64,000 nucleotides of DNA from Candidatus Parvarchaeota archaeon. GTDB lineage: Archaea > Nanobdellota > Nanobdellia > B33-G15. This document shows positions 4,412 through 58,267 of the stretch, one piece after another; the stretch's first letter is position 1, and each line of letters starts with the position of its first letter. The translations under genes and the position numbers were made by a program. Below the pieces are notes generated by a model. The model was not told where the DNA came from and did not search any database. It was given only the letters and a program-made list of their open reading frames with translations. The DNA lies in contig JAFCFZ010000001.1 in NCBI GenBank assembly GCA_017608385.1, positions 8,734 through 72,733 on the forward strand, in the 5' to 3' direction.

Positions 4412-4528
4412 TGCCCACGGTCATAGTTTTGGGGGAAACACCCGTTCCCATTTCGAACACGGAAGTTAAGCCCCAAAGCGTTATTGGGTGTACTGTCTAA
4501 CGACGGGAAACCAGTGAGCTGTGGGCAC
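4412..4528 (+). rRNA. rrf: 5S ribosomal RNA, stand-alone and not linked to 16S/23S
   Basis: The sequence contains the conserved 5S core ...GGTCATAG...CCCGTTCCCATTTCGAACACGGAAGTTAAGCCCC...GTACTG.... The terminal helix pairs 5' TGCCCACGG with 3' CTGTGGGCA. The region is GC-enriched relative to its flanks and is about 117 nt long. Confidence 0.85.
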
Positions 4529-46233: not shown

Positions 46234-47264
46234 TGGATTTGAAAAAAATAATACCAATATTGGCAGTGGTTTTGGTACTTGGATGTATACAAGCTCCAGC
46301 AGAAGAAACCAAATTAATGGAATCTGAAGGATTAGGAATTCTATTATTCGGACTTCCATCTAATCCAGAAAATCCTGTTATAGAAATTGAAAAAGTTCCC
46401 GCTAATTCAGATGCCTTTCTTAGTCTTATCTTAAGAAACAATGCAGAAGGAGACATAGCTAAAGATATCACAGTTAGTCTAGACAATGTTGAGCCGTTTG
46501 ATATTGTAGAATGTGGAGATCAACATTCTCCTGTTGCTCAAAGAACTGAAGCATGTTATGGAAGTATATATGATGACAGACTTGAAGATGACTATAGAAC
46601 ACACAGAATAAATGAGATGAGACCTGATGAAGAATTAGAATTTTTTTGGGTGTTAAAATCTCCATCTAAACTAATAACGGGGGGTTTGTATTATCAACAC
46701 CCTATTTATGTAAGTGTGAATTATCACTATCATACAAGTATCTATACTGGTGTTGCTGCAATGACCTTTCAAGAGTATTCTTCAAGAAAATCTGGAGGAG
46801 GAAGTTTAACAGGAACTAGTACTTCAAGTGCAGGAGAGGTAATTGTTTATTCCCAAACAAGTGAGCCTATCTTATATGTTCAAGGTTCTCCTGGTTCATT
46901 TGTATTGAAATTATTAATAACTAATAGAGGAAATGGGATCCCAAAACCGAATGAAAAAGTCAACTTAACTATTGAGTTTGATAAAAATCTTGTTGAATTA
47001 AATGGAGAAACAACAGTTGATGTTGCAAATCAAAATCAGTTAAGATGGTTTAATACAGAATATGGAGCAAACAAACAAGATAGAGAATCATTATTACTCC
47101 AACAAATAGAACCAATCAATTTGATATCAAATTCTTACACAATAAATGTTCCTTTCAAATTATTGGAAAGTAATGCTAATTACCAAATTTTACCTTTTTA
47201 TGTGAGAATCAGTTATGATTATTCTTTAGAAAGTCAGACAGCATTAGGGGTGATACCAACTTGA
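46224..47264 (+). CDS. Lipobox-like secreted protein
   Basis: The N-terminus MDLKKIIPILAVVLVLGCIQAPAEE contains the lipobox-like LVLGC. It is beta-rich with N-glycan sequons and overlaps the next gene. Confidence 0.5.
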   Translation: MCLMDLKKIIPILAVVLVLGCIQAPAEETKLMESEGLGILLFGLPSNPENPVIEIEKVPANSDAFLSLILRNNAEGDIAKDITVSLDNVEPFDIVECGDQHSPVAQRTEACYGSIYDDRLEDDYRTHRINEMRPDEELEFFWVLKSPSKLITGGLYYQHPIYVSVNYHYHTSIYTGVAAMTFQEYSSRKSGGGSLTGTSTSSAGEVIVYSQTSEPILYVQGSPGSFVLKLLITNRGNGIPKPNEKVNLTIEFDKNLVELNGETTVDVANQNQLRWFNTEYGANKQDRESLLLQQIEPINLISNSYTINVPFKLLESNANYQILPFYVRISYDYSLESQTALGVIPT

Positions 47265-48136
47265 AAAAATATATACCTCTCTTTCTAGTGTTGCTTGTTC
47301 TTGGATGTATTCAACAAGAACCTGAAACAAATGACAAAATAATAACTTTTAACGGTTTGACAATTGTTTCATTCTCTGCAGACATAACCAACTTATTACC
47401 AGGAGAAACAACAGATTTGGAACTTTATATCAGAAACATTGGTGACTTCACTGCAGATAATATTGAGACTAAATTAATTGGTTTAGGTGAAATGACTGCA
47501 TTAATGAGAGGTTCCCCTCTAACAGAATTAGAACAAGCAGATTATGATTCATTTTCATGGGAATTAACAGCACCAAATATAGCTGGATTTACAACAGAGG
47601 TACCAATGACCCCTCAAGCAACAGTATATTACAAATATTTTTCACAGGCTTGGTCTGATGTAAATATTGTTCCTTCTTCATATTCTGAACAAGTAACTTC
47701 AGCAAATGGTACTTCCTCAGCTCCAATTGACATCACTATAACCCCAAGTTCAACTCCTTTGAGAACATATAGAGACAATATGCCTCTAAACATCCATATA
47801 GATTTAACAAATAGAGGGGGGGGAGGAATAGCATATTTCGAAAGTGGAGTTGAAAATTCAGCAAAAGCCAATTTTGTTGAGAATATAGTTATTAGATTCC
47901 CATCAGAATGGATAATTACAGATGATTCTTGGACCCTTTTAGGGGATAATGGTGCTGAAAAAGTATATTCATTGGGATGTTCTAGTGAATCCATTGTCCC
48001 ATATATCTGTCCTTCTGGATATAGTAAAGTGGGGAGTTCTTGTATTCAGTGTCCTTCTGGATATAGTTATAATGTAGAAGTTGGATGTGTTTTAGAAGTT
48101 GCAATAATTGATCCGGAAGTTTTCAGGATACAATAA
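47261..48136 (+). CDS. Lipobox-like secreted protein with CPSGY repeats; its C-terminal part appears to continue in ORF 48108..48626 after a +1 frameshift
   Basis: The N-terminus MKKYIPLFLVLLVLGCIQQEPE carries the same LVLGCIQ as the upstream gene. The C-terminus starts the repeats ICPSGYSKVGSSCIQCPSGYSYNVEVGC. The ORF ends 11 codons after a T4 run (48120-48123) where the reading frame switches. Confidence 0.5.
   Translation: MKKYIPLFLVLLVLGCIQQEPETNDKIITFNGLTIVSFSADITNLLPGETTDLELYIRNIGDFTADNIETKLIGLGEMTALMRGSPLTELEQADYDSFSWELTAPNIAGFTTEVPMTPQATVYYKYFSQAWSDVNIVPSSYSEQVTSANGTSSAPIDITITPSSTPLRTYRDNMPLNIHIDLTNRGGGGIAYFESGVENSAKANFVENIVIRFPSEWIITDDSWTLLGDNGAEKVYSLGCSSESIVPYICPSGYSKVGSSCIQCPSGYSYNVEVGCVLEVAIIDPEVFRIQ
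48008..48121 (+). repeat. 114-bp perfect direct repeat, copy 1 (copy 2 at 48243..48356)
   Basis: The 114-bp sequence TGTCCTTCTGGATATAGTAAAGTGGGGAG...ATTGATCCGGAAGTT is identical at both sites. A diverged 121-bp copy of the same coding unit lies between the two. Confidence 0.85.
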
Positions 48137-48626
48137 GGTTGGGGTCTTTTGTATAACATGTCCATCTGGATATACCTACGACATGGAGATTGGTTGTATA
48201 AAAGGAGAGGATATACTCTCAACAGAATCTACAGACCCTATTTGTCCTTCTGGATATAGTAAAGTGGGGAGTTCTTGTATTCAGTGTCCTTCTGGATATA
48301 GTTATAATGTAGAAGTTGGATGTGTTTTAGAAGTTGCAATAATTGATCCGGAAGTTATAATTGATCCGGAAGTTGCTGATCCTCTTTGTCCAAATGGTTC
48401 TGTGGAAGAAGAAGGAAAATGTATTTCAACAGATTCAGAAAGTTGTACAATTGATGATTTGAATTATAAATTAAGATTAACTCAAGGTAATTCAAACTTA
48501 GTTATAGTTCCATTCAATATCAGTCAAGTAGACACACCAGTAACTGAAAGATTCTATGTGAATATGACTTATGGATATAAATTGAATTCAAATCCAATAA
48601 CAATAACAATAATTCCCTTAATCTAA
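48108..48626 (+). CDS. CPSGY-repeat protein fragment, probably the C-terminal continuation of 47261..48136
   Basis: It has no signal peptide of its own. It continues the repeat motif (GYNKVGVFCITCPSGYTYDMEIGC, ICPSGYSKVGSSCIQCPSGYSYNVEVGC, IIDPEVIIDPEV, CPNGSVEEEGKC). Confidence 0.45.
   Translation: MIRKFSGYNKVGVFCITCPSGYTYDMEIGCIKGEDILSTESTDPICPSGYSKVGSSCIQCPSGYSYNVEVGCVLEVAIIDPEVIIDPEVADPLCPNGSVEEEGKCISTDSESCTIDDLNYKLRLTQGNSNLVIVPFNISQVDTPVTERFYVNMTYGYKLNSNPITITIIPLI
48243..48356 (+). repeat. 114-bp perfect direct repeat, copy 2
   Basis: It is identical to 48008..48121. Confidence 0.85.
48339..48374 (+). repeat. 18-bp tandem duplication (ATAATTGATCCGGAAGTT x2) encoding IIDPEV-IIDPEV
   Basis: It is read directly from the sequence and abuts the end of repeat copy 2. 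Confidence 0.8.
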
Positions 48627-49846
48627 AAAAAGTCAGTTATTCTTCTCTCTTTCATAACTATTGGTTCTCCATAAACACCATCATATCCTGGTTTAACTTG
48701 GAGTTTATTATTTCTCATCAAAGCAACCATATCCCCTAACTTTCTATTTATTGCAGAAATATTTTCAATTGGAACATTAAGAAGAATATTAAACTCATTA
48801 TCAAATTTTTCAATAAAAGAATTATAAATATCCCATGCTTTTTTAGTTGCTATGCCTGTCTCCTCTACTTTTGAAATTAATTCTTGAAAAGGGAGAAGTT
48901 TTTTGAAAGGAATACTATTTTCAGGAACAAAACCCAATTTCCTATCTGCTAACTCATCAACTCTGTAATCAACACCAATTGTAAGGGGTTTTCCACATTT
49001 TGGACAAATCCCTTTAACCTTTTTAGTTTCAGAGGGTTTCATAACAACATTACAAGATCTATGTCCATCATAATGATATTTCCCATAAGCTGGTTCAGTT
49101 TCAATAGTAAAGAGAAATTTTTCTTTTGTTCTTATTGCTTGTATAATATTATCATATGTTGGATCATCAATATCAAAAACATTACATTCTCTTCCTATTC
49201 TCCAGGGATATGGTGAATGACTATCACTGTTTGAAATCAATGTGTATTTATCCAATTGACTTAATCTCCAATTCATTTCTGGATCACTTGACAATCCCGT
49301 CTCCAAAGCAAAAATATGTTTTGTCATATCTTCATAACAGTCTTCCACTGTATCAAATCCACTTTTAGAACCAAAAAGTGAAAACCAAGGTGTCCAAATA
49401 TGTGCAGGAATTATTTGAATATTTTTGTCAATTGATTTGAGGATTTCTACTAATTCGGGGGACTTAATTCCTAAAATAGGTCTACCATCTGAAATTAAAT
49501 TCCCTCTTTTACCAAGAACATCTATTATTTGGTAGGCTGAATCAAAACTAGGCACGGTGATTATATGGTGAATCTTCCTAACTTTATCTCCCTTTTTGTA
49601 GATACATGATATTTCTCCAGTTAACATGAATTTCATACCTTTGTGATCAAAAAGACCATTGTTCAAATCAGATAACTGGGGTTTTATTTCATCTAACCAT
49701 CTCTTAAATGTACAATCTCCTGTTGCTAAAACATGTAAACCTTTCATCTTTCCATATTTAGTCATGATTGAAGGTATCATCTTATCAGAAGTTCCTCTAG
49801 CATAAGGTGAGTGTAGATGTAAATCTGCAAATAACATTTTAACCAA
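48623..49846 (-). CDS. PHP-domain endonuclease, EndoQ-like, with a C-terminal zinc ribbon
   Basis: The N-terminus LFADLHLHSPYARGTS...GLHVLATGDCTF...MKFMLTGEIS resembles the EndoQ/PHP N-terminus. The C-terminal part has GICPKCGKPLTIG, a zinc ribbon. Confidence 0.5.
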   Translation of the reverse strand: MVKMLFADLHLHSPYARGTSDKMIPSIMTKYGKMKGLHVLATGDCTFKRWLDEIKPQLSDLNNGLFDHKGMKFMLTGEISCIYKKGDKVRKIHHIITVPSFDSAYQIIDVLGKRGNLISDGRPILGIKSPELVEILKSIDKNIQIIPAHIWTPWFSLFGSKSGFDTVEDCYEDMTKHIFALETGLSSDPEMNWRLSQLDKYTLISNSDSHSPYPWRIGRECNVFDIDDPTYDNIIQAIRTKEKFLFTIETEPAYGKYHYDGHRSCNVVMKPSETKKVKGICPKCGKPLTIGVDYRVDELADRKLGFVPENSIPFKKLLPFQELISKVEETGIATKKAWDIYNSFIEKFDNEFNILLNVPIENISAINRKLGDMVALMRNNKLQVKPGYDGVYGEPIVMKERRITDFF

Positions 49847-50573
49847 TATAATTAATTGATTCTTTTTCTAAATTCCTTTTTGAAGACCTTCTTTTTGGTT
49901 CCTCAACAAGAGTCATTTCTTTCATCTTTTTGAGGTCTATTTTAAATCCTAAATATTCAGAAAGGAACTTAACTATTTTCCTGGCGCCTTTTACACCAAG
50001 ATAAGCTGGATGAGCATAAGTGTCAACAAGAAGAGAAAATCCTTCAAAGCCATTTTGTTGTGCTAGTCCTAATAATACTCCTGCAGCACCTATTACTACA
50101 CTAACGCAAGAAGGATCTGTACAAACCCCTCTTTTACCTATTTTTGAAAGTGTTTTTTTACTGGTTGCTACAGTATGTAATTTAACTATTTTAGGAACTT
50201 TTCTATGACCTATCCCACCTAAAGTAATAATTTCTTTGACTCCTAAATCTCTTGAAACTTTTAGAATTGCTTCTGATATCCTATAAGTCCCTGGTTCTGA
50301 TGAAGCTTGAGTATCTCCAATCAAAAGAACAATGTCTCTTTTCTTGTTTTTTATGAAGTAAACCTTTAAATTTGGAAGAGTTACCAAACTCTCTTCAGAA
50401 ACAAAAACAGAATGAGGTAAATCATCAGAATAAATAGTACAATATTCTTCTGCTTTCAATTCTTTTGCAATAAAATCCACAGATATTTTTGCTACATTTC
50501 CTATTCCTGGAAGCCCTTCAACTAGTATTGGATTTTTTAGATTTGGTTTCTTTTTCTTCTTGATTAATATCAT
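49839..50573 (-). CDS. PAC2-family proteasome assembly chaperone (second paralog)
   Basis: ILVEGLPGIGNVAKISVDFIAKEL...DLPHSVFVSEESLVTLPNLKVYF is the PAC2 N-terminal pattern. The C-terminus is charged. Confidence 0.5.
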   Translation of the reverse strand: MILIKKKKKPNLKNPILVEGLPGIGNVAKISVDFIAKELKAEEYCTIYSDDLPHSVFVSEESLVTLPNLKVYFIKNKKRDIVLLIGDTQASSEPGTYRISEAILKVSRDLGVKEIITLGGIGHRKVPKIVKLHTVATSKKTLSKIGKRGVCTDPSCVSVVIGAAGVLLGLAQQNGFEGFSLLVDTYAHPAYLGVKGARKIVKFLSEYLGFKIDLKKMKEMTLVEEPKRRSSKRNLEKESINYIG

Positions 50574-50715
50574 TTTTTGTCATTCTCCTGTATTTTCCAT
50601 ATTTGTCTTCAGGTGAAAACTTTGGGGGCTTATTTTGTATTGTCTTTTTTTCACAAATAGGACATTTCTCCTTCAAAGTGTATTCTCTGCATTTATCGCA
50701 GAAAAGTATCATCAT
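50518..50715 (-). CDS. nop10: H/ACA RNP protein Nop10
   Basis: It has the Nop10 zinc ribbon CDKCREYTLKEKCPICEKKT plus PPKFSPEDKYGKYRR, the Nop10 signature. Confidence 0.8.
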   Translation of the reverse strand: MMILFCDKCREYTLKEKCPICEKKTIQNKPPKFSPEDKYGKYRRMTKNDINQEEKETKSKKSNTS

Positions 50716-51476
50716 AATAATACCTTAAATTCCGTGTTATTTTTCTTGCTCAAAGATTCCATTTCTTCTAAAAAAGAATTCATTATCTTTTCTCCTTCTT
50801 TGTAATCATTTGTAACAAAAAAAACCTCATATTTTGGAGCAGCTCTGTATTTTAATTCTATTTGAGGAACTTTTTCAGATGCCTTTGAAAATATTTGTTT
50901 TATCATTTCTGATCCATCGGGATTAAGGTTTTTTATGAAAAGGTCCTTTTTGATTTTGATTTTCTTTCTTGCAATTATTGCTTCAACTTCTTTTATCATC
51001 TCTTTTTTCCATTCATTATTTATGCTCAATGAATCAATAACTTCTATTCCTTTTCTTTGAACAAGTTTCATAAAATCTCCAAGACTATTGTAATCCTTTA
51101 AAATCTCTTCTTCAACGTCCTCTGATGTTCCTGTTTTCAGTTTTTTTCCAATGAATTCAAGAAGTTTATCAAATCTTTTTGAAAGTCTCCATTCAGCAAA
51201 TTTTCTCTTTTTTTCTCCTTCCCTTACTCTCTTAAGAGAAACATCAACATATCTTTTATCATAATTTATTCTCAAAGCAATGCAAATAATTTGTTTTTCA
51301 TGTTGAATATAATCTTTAATGTTCTTTATTCTCCCACTTGCAACTTCTGATATATGTAGCATTGCATCTTGGTTTTCATACTCATCTAAAGAAACAAATG
51401 CTGAATGAGGAGAAATACTCTTTACAGTACATACAAGAAGTTCATTTCTTTTAGGTAAACCTCTTTTAAGTTTCAT
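50712..51476 (-). CDS. eif2a: Translation initiation factor 2 alpha subunit (aIF2alpha)
   Basis: An N-terminal S1 domain (LPKRNELLVCTVKSISPHSAFVSLDEYENQDAMLHISEVAS) is followed by a helical domain and a C-terminal alpha/beta domain. It sits in the conserved L44e-S27e-eIF2alpha-Nop10 order. Confidence 0.8.
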   Translation of the reverse strand: MKLKRGLPKRNELLVCTVKSISPHSAFVSLDEYENQDAMLHISEVASGRIKNIKDYIQHEKQIICIALRINYDKRYVDVSLKRVREGEKKRKFAEWRLSKRFDKLLEFIGKKLKTGTSEDVEEEILKDYNSLGDFMKLVQRKGIEVIDSLSINNEWKKEMIKEVEAIIARKKIKIKKDLFIKNLNPDGSEMIKQIFSKASEKVPQIELKYRAAPKYEVFFVTNDYKEGEKIMNSFLEEMESLSKKNNTEFKVLL

Positions 51477-51661
51477 TCTAGTACTTCCAAAACTTTTGCC
51501 TTTATTTTAGACTTTCCTCCAGTAGGTTCAACAAGCAATGATTTACATTTAGGACATTCAACTTTACTGGCTGCACTTCCAAAAACTACTGCTTCTGTTT
51601 TACATTTAGGACATTTTATTTTCAAAAACCTAGATTTTGGAGTTTGTATCATATCACTCAT
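51473..51661 (-). CDS. rps27e: Ribosomal protein S27e
   Basis: Taking the internal start MSDMIQTPKSRFLKIKCPKCKTEAVVFGSAASKVECPKCKSLLVEPTGGKSKI gives a 62-aa C4 zinc-finger protein. The ATG overlaps the L44e stop. Confidence 0.8.
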   Translation of the reverse strand: MSDMIQTPKSRFLKIKCPKCKTEAVVFGSAASKVECPKCKSLLVEPTGGKSKIKAKVLEVLE

Positions 51662-51951
51662 TGCATTTCCACCTTTTTTGCTCTTTTTCCTTTTTTTGGT
51701 GTTTGTGATTTTCCACAATCAGGACATTTATATCTCAAATCAATCTTTTTTGAGGATTTTGCACCATATTTTGCTCCTTTTTCAGGTTTAGGTCTTGGAT
51801 ATCCTCCATAACCAGCTATTTTTGATTTGAATCTTCTTTGTCCTTCTTTCATAGAACCTCTTCTTCTACCAGATTTAACTATTGAAGTCGTATGTTCGGT
51901 GTGTTTCTTACATTTTGGACAGTATCTTCTATTTTTCTTTGGAATTTTCAT
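51658..51951 (-). CDS. rpl44e: Ribosomal protein L44e
   Basis: The sequence MKIPKKNRRYCPKCKKHTEHT...KSKIAGYGGYPRPK...RYKCPDCGKS is the L44e pattern with its C4 zinc finger. Confidence 0.85.
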   Translation of the reverse strand: MKIPKKNRRYCPKCKKHTEHTTSIVKSGRRRGSMKEGQRRFKSKIAGYGGYPRPKPEKGAKYGAKSSKKIDLRYKCPDCGKSQTPKKGKRAKKVEMQ

Positions 51952-52525
51952 CTTTGATCTCCTCTACTTTACCTCTTTTGGTCAAGAGGTCTGATAACTC
52001 TTCAGAGAGATTTCCCATATCCTCTTTTGAGAATGGACCATAACTCTTGTTATTCCAAACAAATGGAGCTACGTCATCTAAAAATCTCACGAGTTTTGTT
52101 TTACCCACCCCTTCTCCTTTTTTAACCTTTTCCGCTGATGTAATTGCCTTTGAAACATTATTTCTGTGCTGTTTTACAGTGTCTAAGGTCTTTTCAAAAA
52201 GCTTTTTCTCGTGTTCTAACATATTTGAAGTATTATGAATACTTATTTCTTTTTTAGCTGACAAAATTGCATGATAAATTATTTTCTTTTCTCTTAATTG
52301 GAATAAAATATCAACAACCCTAATAGCATTTTCCATCTCAACCCTGGCTCTTTCTTCCATCTCCTTTGAAAAGGGGTTATTGTCTTTTTTGTTTTTTGAA
52401 ATAATATTTTTTTTATCTTGAAGATATTCTGAGATTTCTTGAAGAAAATCGTCTCCCAAATCTTGAATGCTTGAGCTTTCTTTTTCTCTTCTTTGCATAT
52501 TTCTTATCTCAGAATAAGTTATCAT
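51929..52525 (-). CDS. GINS complex subunit (Gins51/Gins23-like), putative
   Basis: The N-terminal MITYSEIRNMQRREKESSSIQDLGDDFLQEISEYL matches the archaeal GINS A-domain start (Y.E.R...REK.S..L..L..DFY..V..YL). It is adjacent to the primase and PCNA genes. Confidence 0.45.
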   Translation of the reverse strand: MITYSEIRNMQRREKESSSIQDLGDDFLQEISEYLQDKKNIISKNKKDNNPFSKEMEERARVEMENAIRVVDILFQLREKKIIYHAILSAKKEISIHNTSNMLEHEKKLFEKTLDTVKQHRNNVSKAITSAEKVKKGEGVGKTKLVRFLDDVAPFVWNNKSYGPFSKEDMGNLSEELSDLLTKRGKVEEIKDENSKEK

Positions 52526-53817
52526 TTTTTATTACCCAATTTTTTCTTGTATTTCTGGTTTTTAAAGCTATATGTGACTGGATTTTTGATTTGTTTACAT
52601 ATATTATCAGGAAAACAAACTTTCATATCTTTATAGTATCCTTTATTATCACAATTGGGTGGAAGATATCCAATATTTCTAGAATACCATTTTATCTGAC
52701 TTTTGATATAATTTGGTCTAAGGGGTTCTGGATTTTTTTTATTCCACTCTTCTAAAGTATTTTCAATCATTTTTTGATCCCATCCTACTAATCTTAAAAA
52801 AGTAGCTAAGACAAAAACACTTCTCTTTCTTCCATCTTCAATGCCTTGAAGGATCTTTTTTATACATGGAGGAAAGAATTTCTCTGGTATTGCTTTTTCA
52901 GGAATAACATATTCTTTTCCCAAATCTCTTTTTAGGCTCTCTTCCACATCTTGTCTCTGAACAAAGTCATATGCTTGTGAAAAGAGCCACTTAGCTTCAT
53001 TCTTTTTTCCTTTTTTTGTGATAAATTGCTTTTCAAAAGAGACTTTATCCTTTTCTGCCATTTTCCTATCAAATTCTAAAATTTTATCCTTATCAACAGG
53101 GATACTAACTAACCATGTTTTTTCATTTAATGAATAAGGCATTCTGATTAAATGTCTACTTGAAATAGCTACTGAATCTATTGAAATGACTTGAGAAGGA
53201 TCAAAAACACCATCTATAAAGAGTTCTTTTTCTTTTTTGCCTGATTCCTTAGCAATTTTCTCAATGCTTCCTTCATAATCAATTAGTTCATTGGAAAGCC
53301 TTCCAGATACCATTTGCATTATATACTTTGCAATGTTTTGAGCTGCCTCTGGAAACAACTCCATAGTAGGTTTTCCATTGACTGCTGGAGGAAATGTCTC
53401 AAATGGAACAGCTATATGCCATCCTGTTCCTCCTGAAAATTTAACAGAAATATTCTCTAGTTCATGATATTCTAATGCTTTTACAACTAAATGAGCGCAT
53501 ATCCTTCCATAATCAAAAACACTAGTGTCAATATCTAGTATCAAATCCCACCCCGATCTGATGTTATCCATTTCTTTTTTACTCATTTCAGAACTAAGCA
53601 TCATGGGATTAATCCATCTCTCTTCACTCATATGAAAACTAACAGCTCCATTTCTGACCCAATCTTCTAAATCAGATTGGTATCTAAGGGTTTGAGGTCT
53701 CCTCCCAAAGCCACCATCACGGAATTTAGGGGAAATTTCTCTATTCTCTGCTTCCTTGAGAATTGCTTGTTTAACTTCCTCTCTAGAATAATACTTCAGG
53801 ATATCACTAATCTTCAT
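52522..53817 (-). CDS. priSL: DNA primase, with the PriS catalytic domain fused to a PriL-like Fe-S C-terminal domain
   Basis: The PriS motifs are LILDIDT (DxD) and FSGGTGWHI (SGGRGYH-like), with a zinc knuckle nearby. The C-terminal 100 aa (FFPPCIKKILQGIEDGRKRSVFVLATFLRLVGW...YLPPNCDNKGYYKDMKVCFPDNICKQI) resembles the PriL C-terminal Fe-S region. I saw no separate priL in the window. Confidence 0.5.
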   Translation of the reverse strand: MKISDILKYYSREEVKQAILKEAENREISPKFRDGGFGRRPQTLRYQSDLEDWVRNGAVSFHMSEERWINPMMLSSEMSKKEMDNIRSGWDLILDIDTSVFDYGRICAHLVVKALEYHELENISVKFSGGTGWHIAVPFETFPPAVNGKPTMELFPEAAQNIAKYIMQMVSGRLSNELIDYEGSIEKIAKESGKKEKELFIDGVFDPSQVISIDSVAISSRHLIRMPYSLNEKTWLVSIPVDKDKILEFDRKMAEKDKVSFEKQFITKKGKKNEAKWLFSQAYDFVQRQDVEESLKRDLGKEYVIPEKAIPEKFFPPCIKKILQGIEDGRKRSVFVLATFLRLVGWDQKMIENTLEEWNKKNPEPLRPNYIKSQIKWYSRNIGYLPPNCDNKGYYKDMKVCFPDNICKQIKNPVTYSFKNQKYKKKLGNKK

Positions 53818-53870
53818 AGAAATAATTCTGGTTTTATAGTTTAAAAAATTCTTGTATAAGGTATCACTAA

Positions 53871-54611
53871 TTAATCTAATTCTGTTCTGGGTGCTAAAAC
53901 AAATTTTAGGCTTAATTTATCTTCAACTCTATATTCTAATTGAACTGGATAATCTGTGCTAAATTTTATTGTCAAATCATCTGAAAAAGAGGATGGTTTT
54001 AACATTCTTTCAAGATAATCTATTCCATATCTTGATCTCCCCACTCCTTCAAATGAAAATCCCTTGGTTTCTTTATTAAGAAGCATATGAAAACCTTGAG
54101 AATTTCCTTCAGAACTCATTTCAAAACCTTTTTCAGAAGCTTCAAAAACAGCTGCTTCAGAAATCATCGAAGCATCTGTGACAACATCTTTAAAGAGTTT
54201 TGAGGTAATATTCAATGTACATCCAAATTCTAAAGGAGGTATTGATTGTTCAGAATCAAGAGGTTCAATTAAAGGTAATAAGAAGTTTCTTACTGAATTT
54301 CCTTGGAAAAGTATTTTTAACTTATTTTCTTCATCCAATATTTCCATAACTAAAATGTCCTCTGGTCTTGCTCTTTTCAAAATTTTCAACAATAAATCTA
54401 GATTTATTGTCATCAAAGTGTCTGATGCTTCAAAAGAATCAAAAGCAGTATTATTAATATTTAGGATCACCATAGCAGCTCCAGCAGGATCCATTGCTAT
54501 TAGTTTCATTCCTGTTGGACTTAATTTGAATGTTCCCTCAGTAACTAAAGAAGATATAGAATCTAATACATTTCTTAAAAATGAAGGATCTGAGGTTCTT
54601 AATTTGAACAT
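53871..54611 (-). CDS. pcn: DNA polymerase sliding clamp PCNA
   Basis: This 246-aa protein (MFKLRTSDPSFLRNVLDSISSLVTEGTFKLSPTGMKLIAMDPAGAAMVILNINNTAFDSFEA) shows the two-domain PCNA fold pattern. Confidence 0.8.
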   Translation of the reverse strand: MFKLRTSDPSFLRNVLDSISSLVTEGTFKLSPTGMKLIAMDPAGAAMVILNINNTAFDSFEASDTLMTINLDLLLKILKRARPEDILVMEILDEENKLKILFQGNSVRNFLLPLIEPLDSEQSIPPLEFGCTLNITSKLFKDVVTDASMISEAAVFEASEKGFEMSSEGNSQGFHMLLNKETKGFSFEGVGRSRYGIDYLERMLKPSSFSDDLTIKFSTDYPVQLEYRVEDKLSLKFVLAPRTELD

Positions 54612-54664: not shown

Positions 54665-54883
54665 TTAAAAAGAAAACAATCTGCTAATTCCCGCCAGTAA
54701 CACTCCAATTATAATCATTAGAAGGGGTATTGTTAATCCAAAACCAAGTAAATCGAATATTGGGACTGTCATATCAAATGGTAATGGTATTAAATTCATA
54801 AAAAAGACAACGCCTAACACAGCAATAATAATTCCTAATAACAAAAATTTGGTTCTATTACCCATCATTAGAGCCTTTTTCAT
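54665..54883 (-). CDS. Small two-TM membrane protein, hypothetical
   Basis: This 72-aa protein has two hydrophobic helices. Confidence 0.3.
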   Translation of the reverse strand: MKKALMMGNRTKFLLLGIIIAVLGVVFFMNLIPLPFDMTVPIFDLLGFGLTIPLLMIIIGVLLAGISRLFSF

Positions 54884-55211
54884 TTAGAGACTTAGTTTCC
54901 TTTTCTTTAAATTTATTGTGAAAATCAATATATTTGAAGTAAATTTTTGTGTCAAGATCTTTCATATTTTGGATTACCTCTGCTTTTATTTCGGACGTTT
55001 CAATAACAATTCCTATTGTTCTTACTAAGGAACCTATTTCTAAGTCTTTCAACATTTCATCTGAAGGAACTAAAACAGTTGCTTTTCCTTCTCCATCATC
55101 TAATACAAAATAACCAGAATCATCTTTTTCTACAATAGTTCCAAGAATCGCCATCCTTTCACCAGGAATCATATCTTTGATCCTGCTTGGCTTTGTAACC
55201 TTTCTTTCCAT
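54858..55211 (-). CDS. OB-fold nucleic-acid-binding protein (RPA/SSB-like), putative
   Basis: IKDMIPGERMAILGTIVEKDDSGYFVLDDGEGKATVLVPSD fits an OB-fold ssDNA-binding pattern. It is immediately upstream of PCNA. Confidence 0.35.
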   Translation of the reverse strand: MERKVTKPSRIKDMIPGERMAILGTIVEKDDSGYFVLDDGEGKATVLVPSDEMLKDLEIGSLVRTIGIVIETSEIKAEVIQNMKDLDTKIYFKYIDFHNKFKEKETKSLNEKGSNDG

Positions 55212-55287: not shown

Positions 55288-56373
55288 ATGAAAATGGTTG
55301 TAAGTTCTTGGATTCCTAGAAGTCATTTACATTTACTAGAAGTAAAAAAATCTTTGGACAAATTAAGTTTGATAATAAGCAATATCTCTCTTGAAGAAGA
55401 ATTGAAATGTTATATAGAGGGTTTTAGAGGTTACAAAAAGATAAAGTTTAGTATGAATCAAAATGGATTATATTCTTTTGTTTTGGAGAGTAAAAAAAGT
55501 TTAGAGGAAATAAGAGATGATATGTTTTATTTGTTTTTGGAGAGAATTGTAAAAAATTCCCACAAAGTTACATATAAACAAATAAAAAGAGATATATTGA
55601 AACCAGGAATAACAGTAACAATTATTTCTCCAAAAAAAGAAATGCCAAAAGAAAGCATTAAAATTGATGAATTTATCTTAAAATACGAAAAAGATTATTC
55701 AAAGAGTGAAATTAATTATATTTCTGGTCCAGAAAAAAAGGCAATATTATTAGCAGAAGACATTAATCTGTTGACTCTACTTTCTAAATCAAATTATGAT
55801 ATGATGGATGAAATGGAATTAGAATACCATAAAGCAGATAATATCTTTAATCTCTTAGGAAGTGAAATAGATCCAAAATCCTTGAAAAAAGTGGTTTTTT
55901 CTTTAGATTTAGTAAAAAAAAGGGCAGGAGAGATTATATCTAAAATAGAACATGGGGGTCAAGTAATCCAAAGGTTAATTAATAATTTTGAAAAAAACAA
56001 GTTTTATGAAAAAATTGAATTGAACAAATGGAGTTATCAAATAAAATCTGATCACAATTATGTTTTGAATCTGTGGGGTCTATTATTGAATTTTTTAAAA
56101 AATATAGATTTTGCAGCTGAAACAAGATTGACTTATCAAGAAATGATCGAATCAAGAAGAATACAGGGACTTTTAAGTATAGACAGTGCGGCAGTGATTT
56201 CTTCTCTTTTTATAGGAATATTCTTTTCAGAATTTGTAGGGGTAGGTGGAATTGTTCTACTCTTTGTTTTCTTAATTACTTGGATGTTTCTTTATAGGTT
56301 TTTTAAGACACTAAAATCGAAAGTTAGTGGTAAAGAATTAAAAGAACTAGGTATTGTAAAAAAGAATAATTAG
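55288..56373 (+). CDS. Hypothetical protein with C-terminal TM helices
   Basis: This 361-aa protein is helical and charged, with two C-terminal hydrophobic helices. No family was recognised. Confidence 0.35.
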   Translation: MKMVVSSWIPRSHLHLLEVKKSLDKLSLIISNISLEEELKCYIEGFRGYKKIKFSMNQNGLYSFVLESKKSLEEIRDDMFYLFLERIVKNSHKVTYKQIKRDILKPGITVTIISPKKEMPKESIKIDEFILKYEKDYSKSEINYISGPEKKAILLAEDINLLTLLSKSNYDMMDEMELEYHKADNIFNLLGSEIDPKSLKKVVFSLDLVKKRAGEIISKIEHGGQVIQRLINNFEKNKFYEKIELNKWSYQIKSDHNYVLNLWGLLLNFLKNIDFAAETRLTYQEMIESRRIQGLLSIDSAAVISSLFIGIFFSEFVGVGGIVLLFVFLITWMFLYRFFKTLKSKVSGKELKELGIVKKNN

Positions 56374-56693
56374 CTGTATTCTCTCCAGACCTTTTTACAT
56401 TTAGTACATTTATAAAATATAGTTGGTGCCTCATCACCTGCCCTTGTTTGTTCTACCCAAAAATATGCTGATTTATTACCACATTTTCTACATTCTTTAT
56501 CTATTTCAGGAAGTGTAATCTTCTCATCCTCATCTTTTATCAAAACTATCTTTTGTTTTTTTTCGCCCTTTTCAATTATTTTTTTATTGGTGTTAGAATA
56601 TTTATCACACTTTTTACAATAAAAGCTTCTTTTCCCCTTGTGCTCTTTTGGTACTAAAATACACCCACACTTCTGACAAAACATACTTCTCAA
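56370..56693 (-). CDS. tfs: Transcription factor S / RNAP subunit M (TFIIS-type zinc ribbon)
   Basis: An N-terminal Zn ribbon (FCQKCGCIL...YCKKCDK) is followed by the C-terminal TFIIS ribbon CRKCGNKSAYFWVEQTRAGDEAPTIFYKCTKCKKVW with its acidic hairpin. Confidence 0.8.
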   Translation of the reverse strand: MRSMFCQKCGCILVPKEHKGKRSFYCKKCDKYSNTNKKIIEKGEKKQKIVLIKDEDEKITLPEIDKECRKCGNKSAYFWVEQTRAGDEAPTIFYKCTKCKKVWREYS

Positions 56694-57595: not shown

Positions 57596-58267
57596 TTATG
57601 CTTGTCTTAAAGAAATTGAAATTCCTTTGTTAGATATCTTGTATGCAAACAAACCTTGCTTATGTTTTGTTCTTCTCATCTTAACCACTTGAAGGCTTCT
57701 GTCAAAATCTCCCCCCAATCCACCATAGTGTAATACAATAACAGAATCTGATAAAAACTCCTCTACTTGGAACCTTGAATATCCTTTCTCGGCAATAATC
57801 TCTGAAGTCATTATAGCTGTACATCCATTATTCTTCACTGTCTTTCCTAATTCATAAATATTTTTTCTTAATTCATAAATATCTTTTAGATAAAATCCAA
57901 TTCCAGAAATAGAGTCTATAACAATTCTCTTTATTTTGTTTCTTTTCAACAAAAGTGAGAACTCCTGCTTAAATTTATCATATTCAAAAGGAGAAAAATG
58001 AAGTAATTTTATTTTCCCGCTCTTTATGTGTTTTTCCAAGTCCCAACCATATGCGGAAGCATCTCTTATAAGATCCTCAGCTGTTTCTTCAAATGAAACA
58101 TAAAGACCATTTTCACCATCAAGAGCACCTTGTATTAAAAATTGTAGAGAAAATGTGGTTTTTCCAGTACCTGGTCCGCCAGAAAGAAGAATAACACTTC
58201 CTAATTCTAAACCGCCATTAGCTATTTTATCCAAACCAGGAATTCCAGATTTTATTCTTAACCCCAT
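57596..58267 (-). CDS. KaiC-like / RadB-like RecA-superfamily ATPase
   Basis: SGIPGLDKIANGGLELGSVILLSGGPGTGKTTFSLQF and an IVLH... segment are Walker A and B motifs of the KaiC-like family. Confidence 0.7.
   Translation of the reverse strand: MGLRIKSGIPGLDKIANGGLELGSVILLSGGPGTGKTTFSLQFLIQGALDGENGLYVSFEETAEDLIRDASAYGWDLEKHIKSGKIKLLHFSPFEYDKFKQEFSLLLKRNKIKRIVIDSISGIGFYLKDIYELRKNIYELGKTVKNNGCTAIMTSEIIAEKGYSRFQVEEFLSDSVIVLHYGGLGGDFDRSLQVVKMRRTKHKQGLFAYKISNKGISISLRQA

Follow-up and report, generated by a model that had tools for sequence, protein, structure and literature searches.

The locus considered here raises a simple question: can one gene of modest length stand in for both subunits of an archaeal DNA primase, the catalytic PriS and the large subunit PriL, and, if so, is it the primase of the host chromosome or something acquired from elsewhere? 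The gene lies in a stretch of 64,000 nucleotides (nt) of contig JAFCFZ010000001.1 from Candidatus Parvarchaeota archaeon, referred to here as the window. It is a complete gene of 431 codons and a stop, starting with ATG in the list of open reading frames (ORFs) and occupying 52522..53817 on the minus strand, to which all coordinates within the gene refer. The best explanation, to which a probability of about 0.9 can be attached, is that it encodes the chromosomal replicative primase of a host from DPANN Cluster 2, related to Woesearchaeota or Nanoarchaeota to judge by the labels of its homologues, and that this primase is of the monomeric, fused type described for NEQ395 of Nanoarchaeum equitans. 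The basis for this in the window primase is the identity of its domains, its conserved residues, its predicted fold, the context of its gene and the distribution of its family. The fused PriS–PriL primase is already known, and the one described here is an ordinary example of a family that has been well described.

A first-pass annotation of this DNA had pointed to an ORF with the PriS catalytic signatures LILDIDT and FSGGTGWHI, and the ORF list and re-translation confirm it: both signatures, as well as FFPPCIKKILQGIEDGRKRSVFVLATFLRLVGW and CDNKGYYKDMKVCFPDNIC, are found in the window primase as quoted, and WDLILDIDTSVF, VKFSGGTGWHIAVPF and PPNCDNKGYYKDMKVCFPDNIC likewise lie, with FFPPCIKKILQGIEDGRKRSVFVLATFLRLVGW, within the same 431-residue frame. 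The annotation had further proposed that one polypeptide combines a PriS core with a PriL-type C-terminal domain (CTD), and this proposal is supported by sequence, by profile searches and by the predicted fold.

The N-terminal part, residues 1–270 (53008..53817), is a PriS-type catalytic domain of the archaeo-eukaryotic primase (AEP) class, as delimited from an AlphaFold2 model, Foldseek searches and a family profile. The three AEP motifs (hhhDhD/E, sxH, and hD/E on an RRM-like core, as defined in PMC10250227) are all present, as LILDID, SGGTGWH and SID, the last containing D214. Conservation was counted in an alignment of the best 120 homologues. In motif I (D95-I-D97 in LILDIDT, 53527..53535, translation checked), the metal-binding acidic residues D95 and D97 are invariant (120/120). 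In motif II (S128-GGTGW-H134, 53416..53436), H134 likewise occurs in 120/120 homologues, with S128 conserved in at least 90%. The motif III region (53143..53178) comprises the nucleotide-binding residues D214 and then R221-H222 and R225 in SSRHLIRMPYS, all four invariant, and NHLLKSPFSVH of human PriS aligns with this stretch. H62, G129 and G132 complete the set of invariant residues in this half. Profile searches point the same way. An NCBIfam PriS model matches residues 122–250 (E 3e-7), the Pfam LigD primase-polymerase and PriS families give sub-threshold matches over residues 80–242, and a profile of the family compared with sequences in the PDB matched, for the N-terminal half, only chains named “DNA primase small subunit” (E ~3e-4).

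The AlphaFold2 model, built from the 120-sequence alignment, has a mean predicted local distance difference test score (pLDDT) of 93.1 and a predicted template modelling score (pTM) of 0.77. Its alpha/beta domain extends to about residue 255. When the whole model was searched with Foldseek, only AEP enzymes were returned (at least 50 chains, probability 1.00, E about 1e-7 to 3e-5): Prim-PolC, the polymerase domain of LigD, and PriS from human, yeast, Pyrococcus and Sulfolobus. The N-terminal half is thus modelled with an AEP fold bearing PriS-type motifs. Superposition is better on the minimal AEPs, Prim-PolC and LigD polymerase (template modelling score by target 0.5–0.58), than on canonical PriS (0.34–0.46), because the catalytic domain of the window primase is more compact.

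Following the catalytic domain is an alpha-helix assigned by DSSP on the model (residues 276–299, 52921..52992), which leads into a loop of lower confidence (residues 300–314); the pLDDT drops to 75–82 across residues 291–310. After the loop the model has a helical domain at residues 317–430, corresponding to the PriL C-terminal (Fe-S) domain, which occupies residues 315–431 (52525..52875) and ends in a lysine-rich tail. The first-pass annotation had held that the last ~110 residues resemble the PriL iron–sulfur domain, and three kinds of match bear this out, the domain running from about F315 to the C-terminus. First, the Pfam family PF04104 (primase large subunit) matches residues 291–392 above its curated cut-off (25.5 bits vs 22.4). 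Second, NCBIfam PriL models match residues ~290–430 (E 2e-9 to 4e-6), the matched part of these models, which are ~350 residues long, being the last third, from ~203 to the end. Third, the best match among PDB sequences is Pyrococcus abyssi PriL (9f26_B), aligned in two segments spanning FPPC and PPNC...C...C, with an E-value of 2.7e-7 from the single sequence and 4.6e-10 from a profile of the CTD. Since the Foldseek search with the whole model showed only AEP matches, which hid the CTD, residues 300–431 were modelled separately (pLDDT 87.2). With this model PriX ranked first, followed by the PriL-CTD of yeast, human and Xenopus; the predicted fold of the CTD is therefore that of PriL-CTD.

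Two sets of conserved residues in the CTD are of functional interest. The first set is four cysteines: C318, in FPPC (52864..52866), is the predicted first ligand of a [4Fe-4S] cluster, is invariant (120/120) and aligns with the FPPC of P. abyssi PriL; C389, C401 and C407, in PPNC-x11-C-x5-C (52597..52653), are the predicted second to fourth ligands, are conserved in 120/120, 118/120 and 120/120 homologues, respectively, and align with PPNCD...LCTPDKHC of the same protein. The second set is R330-K-R332-S-V-F335 (52813..52830), the predicted site for the initiating nucleoside triphosphate (NTP) or the primer 5′ end, as judged by conservation and by offsets shared with NEQ395; no variation is seen at K331, R332 and F335, whereas R and K both occur at position 330.

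The window primase shares with the canonical PriS–PriL enzymes (P. abyssi, 9f26; Sulfolobus solfataricus, 1zt2/5of3; human, 4rr2) the catalytic motifs, the AEP fold, the PriL-CTD fold, the cysteine pattern and the genomic position of priS. It differs from them in being one polypeptide rather than two and in lacking the N-terminal docking domain of PriL, for which there is no counterpart: only the linker and the CTD follow the 270-residue catalytic domain. With neither a docking domain nor separately encoded subunits, the protein does not qualify as a canonical PriL or PriSL. It differs also in that it can have no cysteine-based PriS zinc motif, because C107 is its only cysteine outside the CTD.

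The closest characterised counterpart is NEQ395 (AAR39242.1), a monomer of 393 residues in which a linker helix of 30 residues joins a PriS domain to a PriL domain that holds a [4Fe-4S] cluster; it has been dissected by mutagenesis (Schneider, Bergsch & Lipps 2023, PMC10250227). In that work, mutation of H58, D87 together with D89, H125, D194, H202 or R205 abolished both polymerase and primase activity, S119A left no polymerase activity and ~10% of primase activity, and K122A, at a less conserved residue, kept roughly half of each activity. Priming, but not elongation, depended on R301, R303 and F306. When C289, C364, C376 and C384 were mutated singly, the cluster was lost but priming was kept. 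The two domains were inactive when supplied in trans, and shortening the linker led to aborted primers (all PMC10250227). The primers made by NEQ395 are ~9 nt long, and its preferred template triplet is ATA.

Within motifs, the spacing agrees for all 16 mutated positions, and, judged by that spacing, 15 of the 16 have the same residue in the window primase, the exception being K122, which is T131. The conserved histidine H58 corresponds to H62; D87 and D89 of motif I to D95 and D97; S119 and H125 of motif II to S128 and H134; D194, H202 and R205 of the motif III region to D214, H222 and R225; the first cysteine and the initiation residues (C289, R301, R303, F306) to C318, R330, R332 and F335; and the second and third cysteines (C364, C376) to C389 and C401. 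The spacings D-x-D, S-x5-H, D-x7-H-x2-R, C-x11-R-x-R-x2-F and C-x11-C are identical in the two proteins, as are the offsets of the initiation residues from the first cysteine (+12, +14, +17) and the distance of 12 between C389 and C401, or C364 and C376. With NEQ395 and the fused DPANN family the window primase shares a single chain of ~390–430 residues, an AEP/PriS domain, a long linker helix and a four-cysteine PriL-CTD, and the PriL N-terminal domain is missing from NEQ395 also. The differences are in length and spacing: the window primase is 38 residues longer (431 vs 393), the distance from the last catalytic arginine to the first cysteine is 93 rather than 84 (9 longer), and the last two cysteines are 6 rather than 8 residues apart.

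An alternative is that the C-terminal domain is a helical helper of the PriX/PriCT kind, which would bind zinc or no metal and have no iron–sulfur cluster. S. solfataricus PriX (4wyh, 5of3_C), however, is a separate subunit without a cluster, whereas the domain in the window primase keeps its four cysteines. These are conserved in 120, 120, 118 and 120 of the 120 homologues and align with FPPC and PPNC...C...C of P. abyssi PriL, and wild-type NEQ395 is brown, with an absorbance at 410 nm that is lost in its cysteine mutants (PMC10250227). A helper of this kind is therefore very unlikely, and C318, C389, C401 and C407 are predicted, by analogy with the spectroscopy of NEQ395, to hold a [4Fe-4S] cluster.

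From these correspondences a division of labour within the fused primase can be proposed. The PriS-type domain would contain the polymerisation site, at which the dinucleotide is formed and then extended: D95, D97 and D214 would bind the metals, H134 would be the motif II histidine, and H62, S128, H222 and R225 would hold the elongating NTP. The PriL-type CTD, tethered to the PriS domain by the helix of ~24 residues and the flexible loop, would hold the initiating nucleotide and later the primer 5′ end by means of R330, R332 and F335, as in NEQ395 and in models of the eukaryotic enzymes; it would thus be needed for dinucleotide formation and not for elongation. The covalent tether would take the place of the PriL N-terminal domain, which normally docks PriL onto PriS, and, by analogy with NEQ395, its length may affect the length of the primers. 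The role of the [4Fe-4S] cluster would be structural or regulatory, rather than catalytic.

The homologues number more than 2,156. Each of the best 120 is full length (410–503 residues) and has the same single-chain architecture of PriS domain, linker and PriL-CTD. An identical protein (P0001) is already public and carries no name; the related entries that do have names are mostly called “hypothetical protein” or “DNA primase catalytic subunit”. Relatives are present in at least 583 species-representative genomes, most of which are labelled Woesearchaeota, Nanoarchaeota/Nanoarchaeia, Pacearchaeota or Parvarchaeota, with a few records under other labels.

This distribution fits what has been described. 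Iyer et al. 2005, cited in Raymann et al. 2014 (PMC3914693), recognised the fusion in N. equitans; Raymann et al. reported it also from Nanohaloarchaea and Parvarchaeota, and ruled out convergence on the grounds that the sequences of the fused primases are related. Dombrowski et al. 2020 (PMC7414124) found the fusion in all of DPANN Cluster 2 and Undinarchaeota, whereas the genes are separate in Cluster 1; in the fused-primase lineages only the fused form has been reported. A 2026 preprint (10.64898/2026.06.17.729505) describes the monomeric primase as the defining synapomorphy of the clade formed by Cluster 2 and Undinarchaeota. The first-pass annotation had called a fused, compact primase a hallmark of extreme genome reduction, which is overstated: with convergence rejected by Raymann et al., it is an inherited, clade-specific character.

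The gene context is one of housekeeping genes. Directly upstream of the primase is the gene for the sliding clamp PCNA (53871..54611, minus strand; Pfam PCNA_N and PCNA_C, and TIGR00590 at 117 bits vs a cut-off of 99). Directly downstream is that for Gins51, also called Gins15 (51929..52525, minus strand), the ATG of which overlaps the stop codon of the primase by 4 nt (ATGA). The Gins51 candidate has a Gins51_C match (E 5e-5) that is also found in 11/11 orthologues. An NCBIfam search of the candidate gave no match, so a profile was built from the 11 orthologues; it matches Thermococcus kodakarensis Gins51 (3anw_A) with an E-value of 5e-17, which settled the identity. In the same operon-like run, the genes for L44E, S27E, aIF2-alpha and Nop10 (the LSIN string; 50518..51951, minus strand) are all above their Pfam cut-offs. 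The order on the minus strand over 49839–54611 is PCNA, primase, Gins51, L44E, S27E, aIF2-alpha, Nop10 and a PAC2 family protein. Apart from the additional COG2047/PAC2 gene, this is the PPsG-LSIN supercluster in the identical order in which it was described by Berthon et al. 2008 (PMC2643942), where the conserved string is PCNA–PriS–Gins15 and priS is the primase gene. In N. equitans, unlike here, all such strings are disrupted.

A separate priL was said by the first-pass annotation to be absent from the PCNA–primase–GINS block, where it would usually be nearby. The absence holds: the window contains no further primase-family ORF. Among its 85 ORFs, PF04104 is not one of the Pfam families matched by two, and no other ORF is primase-like; hidden Markov models from both halves of the family, run against a six-frame translation of the window, found only the window primase, with a next-best E-value above 0.7. 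The expectation does not hold, as Berthon et al. 2008 (PMC2643942) found that the genes of the two primase subunits rarely co-localise. For that reason the absence of priL from the block is not evidence for the fusion; the evidence is the fused sequence itself.

To compare the context across relatives, the closest 80 loci from the at least 583 genomes were taken. In ten of the 80 the fused primase lies within 6 kb of Gins51–L44E–S27E (L001, L002, L006, L011, L024, L039, L048, L061, L066 and L077), and these were compared with the other 70. Gins51 is directly downstream of the primase in 7/10 of the linked loci, and PCNA is directly upstream in 0/10. All 10 fall on one side of a crude, midpoint-rooted neighbour-joining tree of the primase, and therefore the linkage of primase, Gins51 and LSIN seems to have been lost in a large Woesearchaeota clade.

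The same context bears on whether the gene is that of the host at all. The primase-polymerases of mobile elements (pTN2 PolpTN2, pRN1 ORF904, RSF1010 RepB′) follow the same design, in which a tether links an AEP domain and a helical helper, and the window primase could be an integrated plasmid or virus enzyme like PolpTN2 or ORF904, rather than the replicative primase of the host. However, it forms part of the core PCNA–PriS–Gins51–LSIN housekeeping string, overlapping Gins51 by 4 nt, and Pfam scans of the window placed no helicase, integrase or other gene of a mobile element next to it. The G+C content at 52–54 kb (0.316) is like that of the surroundings and within the range of the window (0.28–0.35), no match was found among 50,697 phage records, the family is present across the hundreds of species genomes noted above, and the strongest profile matches are to cellular PriL and PriS, not to the PriCT or Prim-Pol families. 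A search of plasmids with tblastn gave one match in the Clostridium baratii plasmid NZ_CP006906.1 (93609–94418, H1; residues 91–412, 24% identity, E 5e-4) and three in Bacillus plasmids (H2–H4; residues 285–376, 31–32% identity). The matches are distant and marginal, and the genes are annotated “primase C-terminal domain-containing protein”; they do not show that the window primase is mobile. Considering the housekeeping context and the phage and plasmid searches, a mobile-element enzyme is highly improbable and was rejected.

That the single ORF is an artefact of assembly or frameshift merging adjacent priS and priL has next to no probability and was rejected on the family-wide architecture: the nanohaloarchaeon Nanosalina J07AB43 is reported to have a short primase encoded by two adjacent genes (Raymann et al. 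2014, PMC3914693), but the best 120 homologues come from independent assemblies and agree in length and architecture, the model shows the linker as a single unbroken helix of high confidence, and the N-terminal two thirds of PriL is wholly absent, not just out of frame.

Some points weigh against the assignment as a monomeric replicative primase. The PriS family PF01896 is below its cut-off in the window primase (19.2 vs 26.8 bits), although it is present in most of the best 120 homologues according to precomputed annotation; the shortfall is attributable to divergence in sequence and not to a different fold. The NCBIfam PriS and PriL scores are far under the equivalog cut-offs, as would be expected because the fusion is divergent and truncated. 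The correspondence with NEQ395 rests on motif spacing rather than on direct alignment, and the search for a separate priL or priS covered 64 kb of the genome. Lastly, catalysis, Fe-S binding, primer length and a role in the replisome are ascribed to the window primase by homology to NEQ395 and canonical PriSL.

How the fusion came to be in this position can be considered separately. In the 2026 preprint (10.64898/2026.06.17.729505), the monomeric primase is argued to derive from a mobile element and to have taken over from the ancestral PriS and PriL. In the window, the fused gene occupies the exact, ancestral priS slot of the intact PCNA–PriS–Gins51–L44E–S27E–aIF2alpha–Nop10–PAC2 string, which speaks against a foreign gene having inserted at a new site. 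The priS slot, the overlap with Gins51 and the 10/80 linked relatives favour an origin in place, in which priS captured the C-terminal domain of priL, or at least a precise orthologous replacement. Perhaps, one of these is what happened, but the suggestion is tentative and falls somewhat short of even odds; the intact PPsG-LSIN context bears only weakly on the choice between an origin in place and one from a mobile element.

Other features of the window can be noted. Just upstream of PCNA, on the minus strand, are genes for a 117-residue OB-fold protein with weak S1_2 and Rep_fac-A_3 matches (54858–55211) and for transcription factor S (TFS; 56370–56693; TIGR01384, 76 bits vs a cut-off of 64.75), which echo the PCNA–TFS and OB-fold associations of Berthon et al. 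2008 (PMC2643942). A gene at 57596–58267 (minus strand) encodes a KaiC/RadB-like ATPase with a single domain and 223 residues, and the KaiC-type ATPase, PAC2, SRP54 GTPase, SecD/SecF and ResIII helicase Pfam families each have two members in the window. At 48623–49846 (minus strand) is a 407-residue protein in which an N-terminal motif reads DLHLHSPYARGTS and a second motif, CPKCGKPL, is like a zinc ribbon; it matches TIGR00375 over its full length below the cut-off (207.7 bits vs 326.6), has no Pfam match, and presumably resembles the PHP-domain endonuclease EndoQ. Two overlapping ORFs on the plus strand (47261–48626) encode a probably secreted protein rich in cysteine. They have in common a direct repeat of 118 nt (48004–48121 and 48239–48356; 99% identity, 235 nt apart), which encodes CPSGYSKVGSSCIQCPSGYSYNVEVGCVLEVAIIDPEV; either an internal duplication took place recently or a single gene may have been split by a frameshift. 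Rfam identified one 5S rRNA gene (4413–4527, plus strand) in the window, and ARAGORN found no tRNA gene in the 64 kb and so gave no clue to taxonomy or to an integration site, although intron-containing or split archaeal tRNAs could escape its detection.

To what is known of primases, then, the window primase adds little, as the monomeric form is already established as a synapomorphy that unites DPANN Cluster 2 with Undinarchaeota, and one such primase has been characterised biochemically. Its value is practical: the gene can be annotated as a monomeric PriS–PriL primase, and the presence of the fusion assigns the window to the clade of DPANN Cluster 2 and Undinarchaeota. The intact PPsG-LSIN context contributes a small data point to the debate between an origin of the fused primase in place and replacement by a gene from a mobile element.

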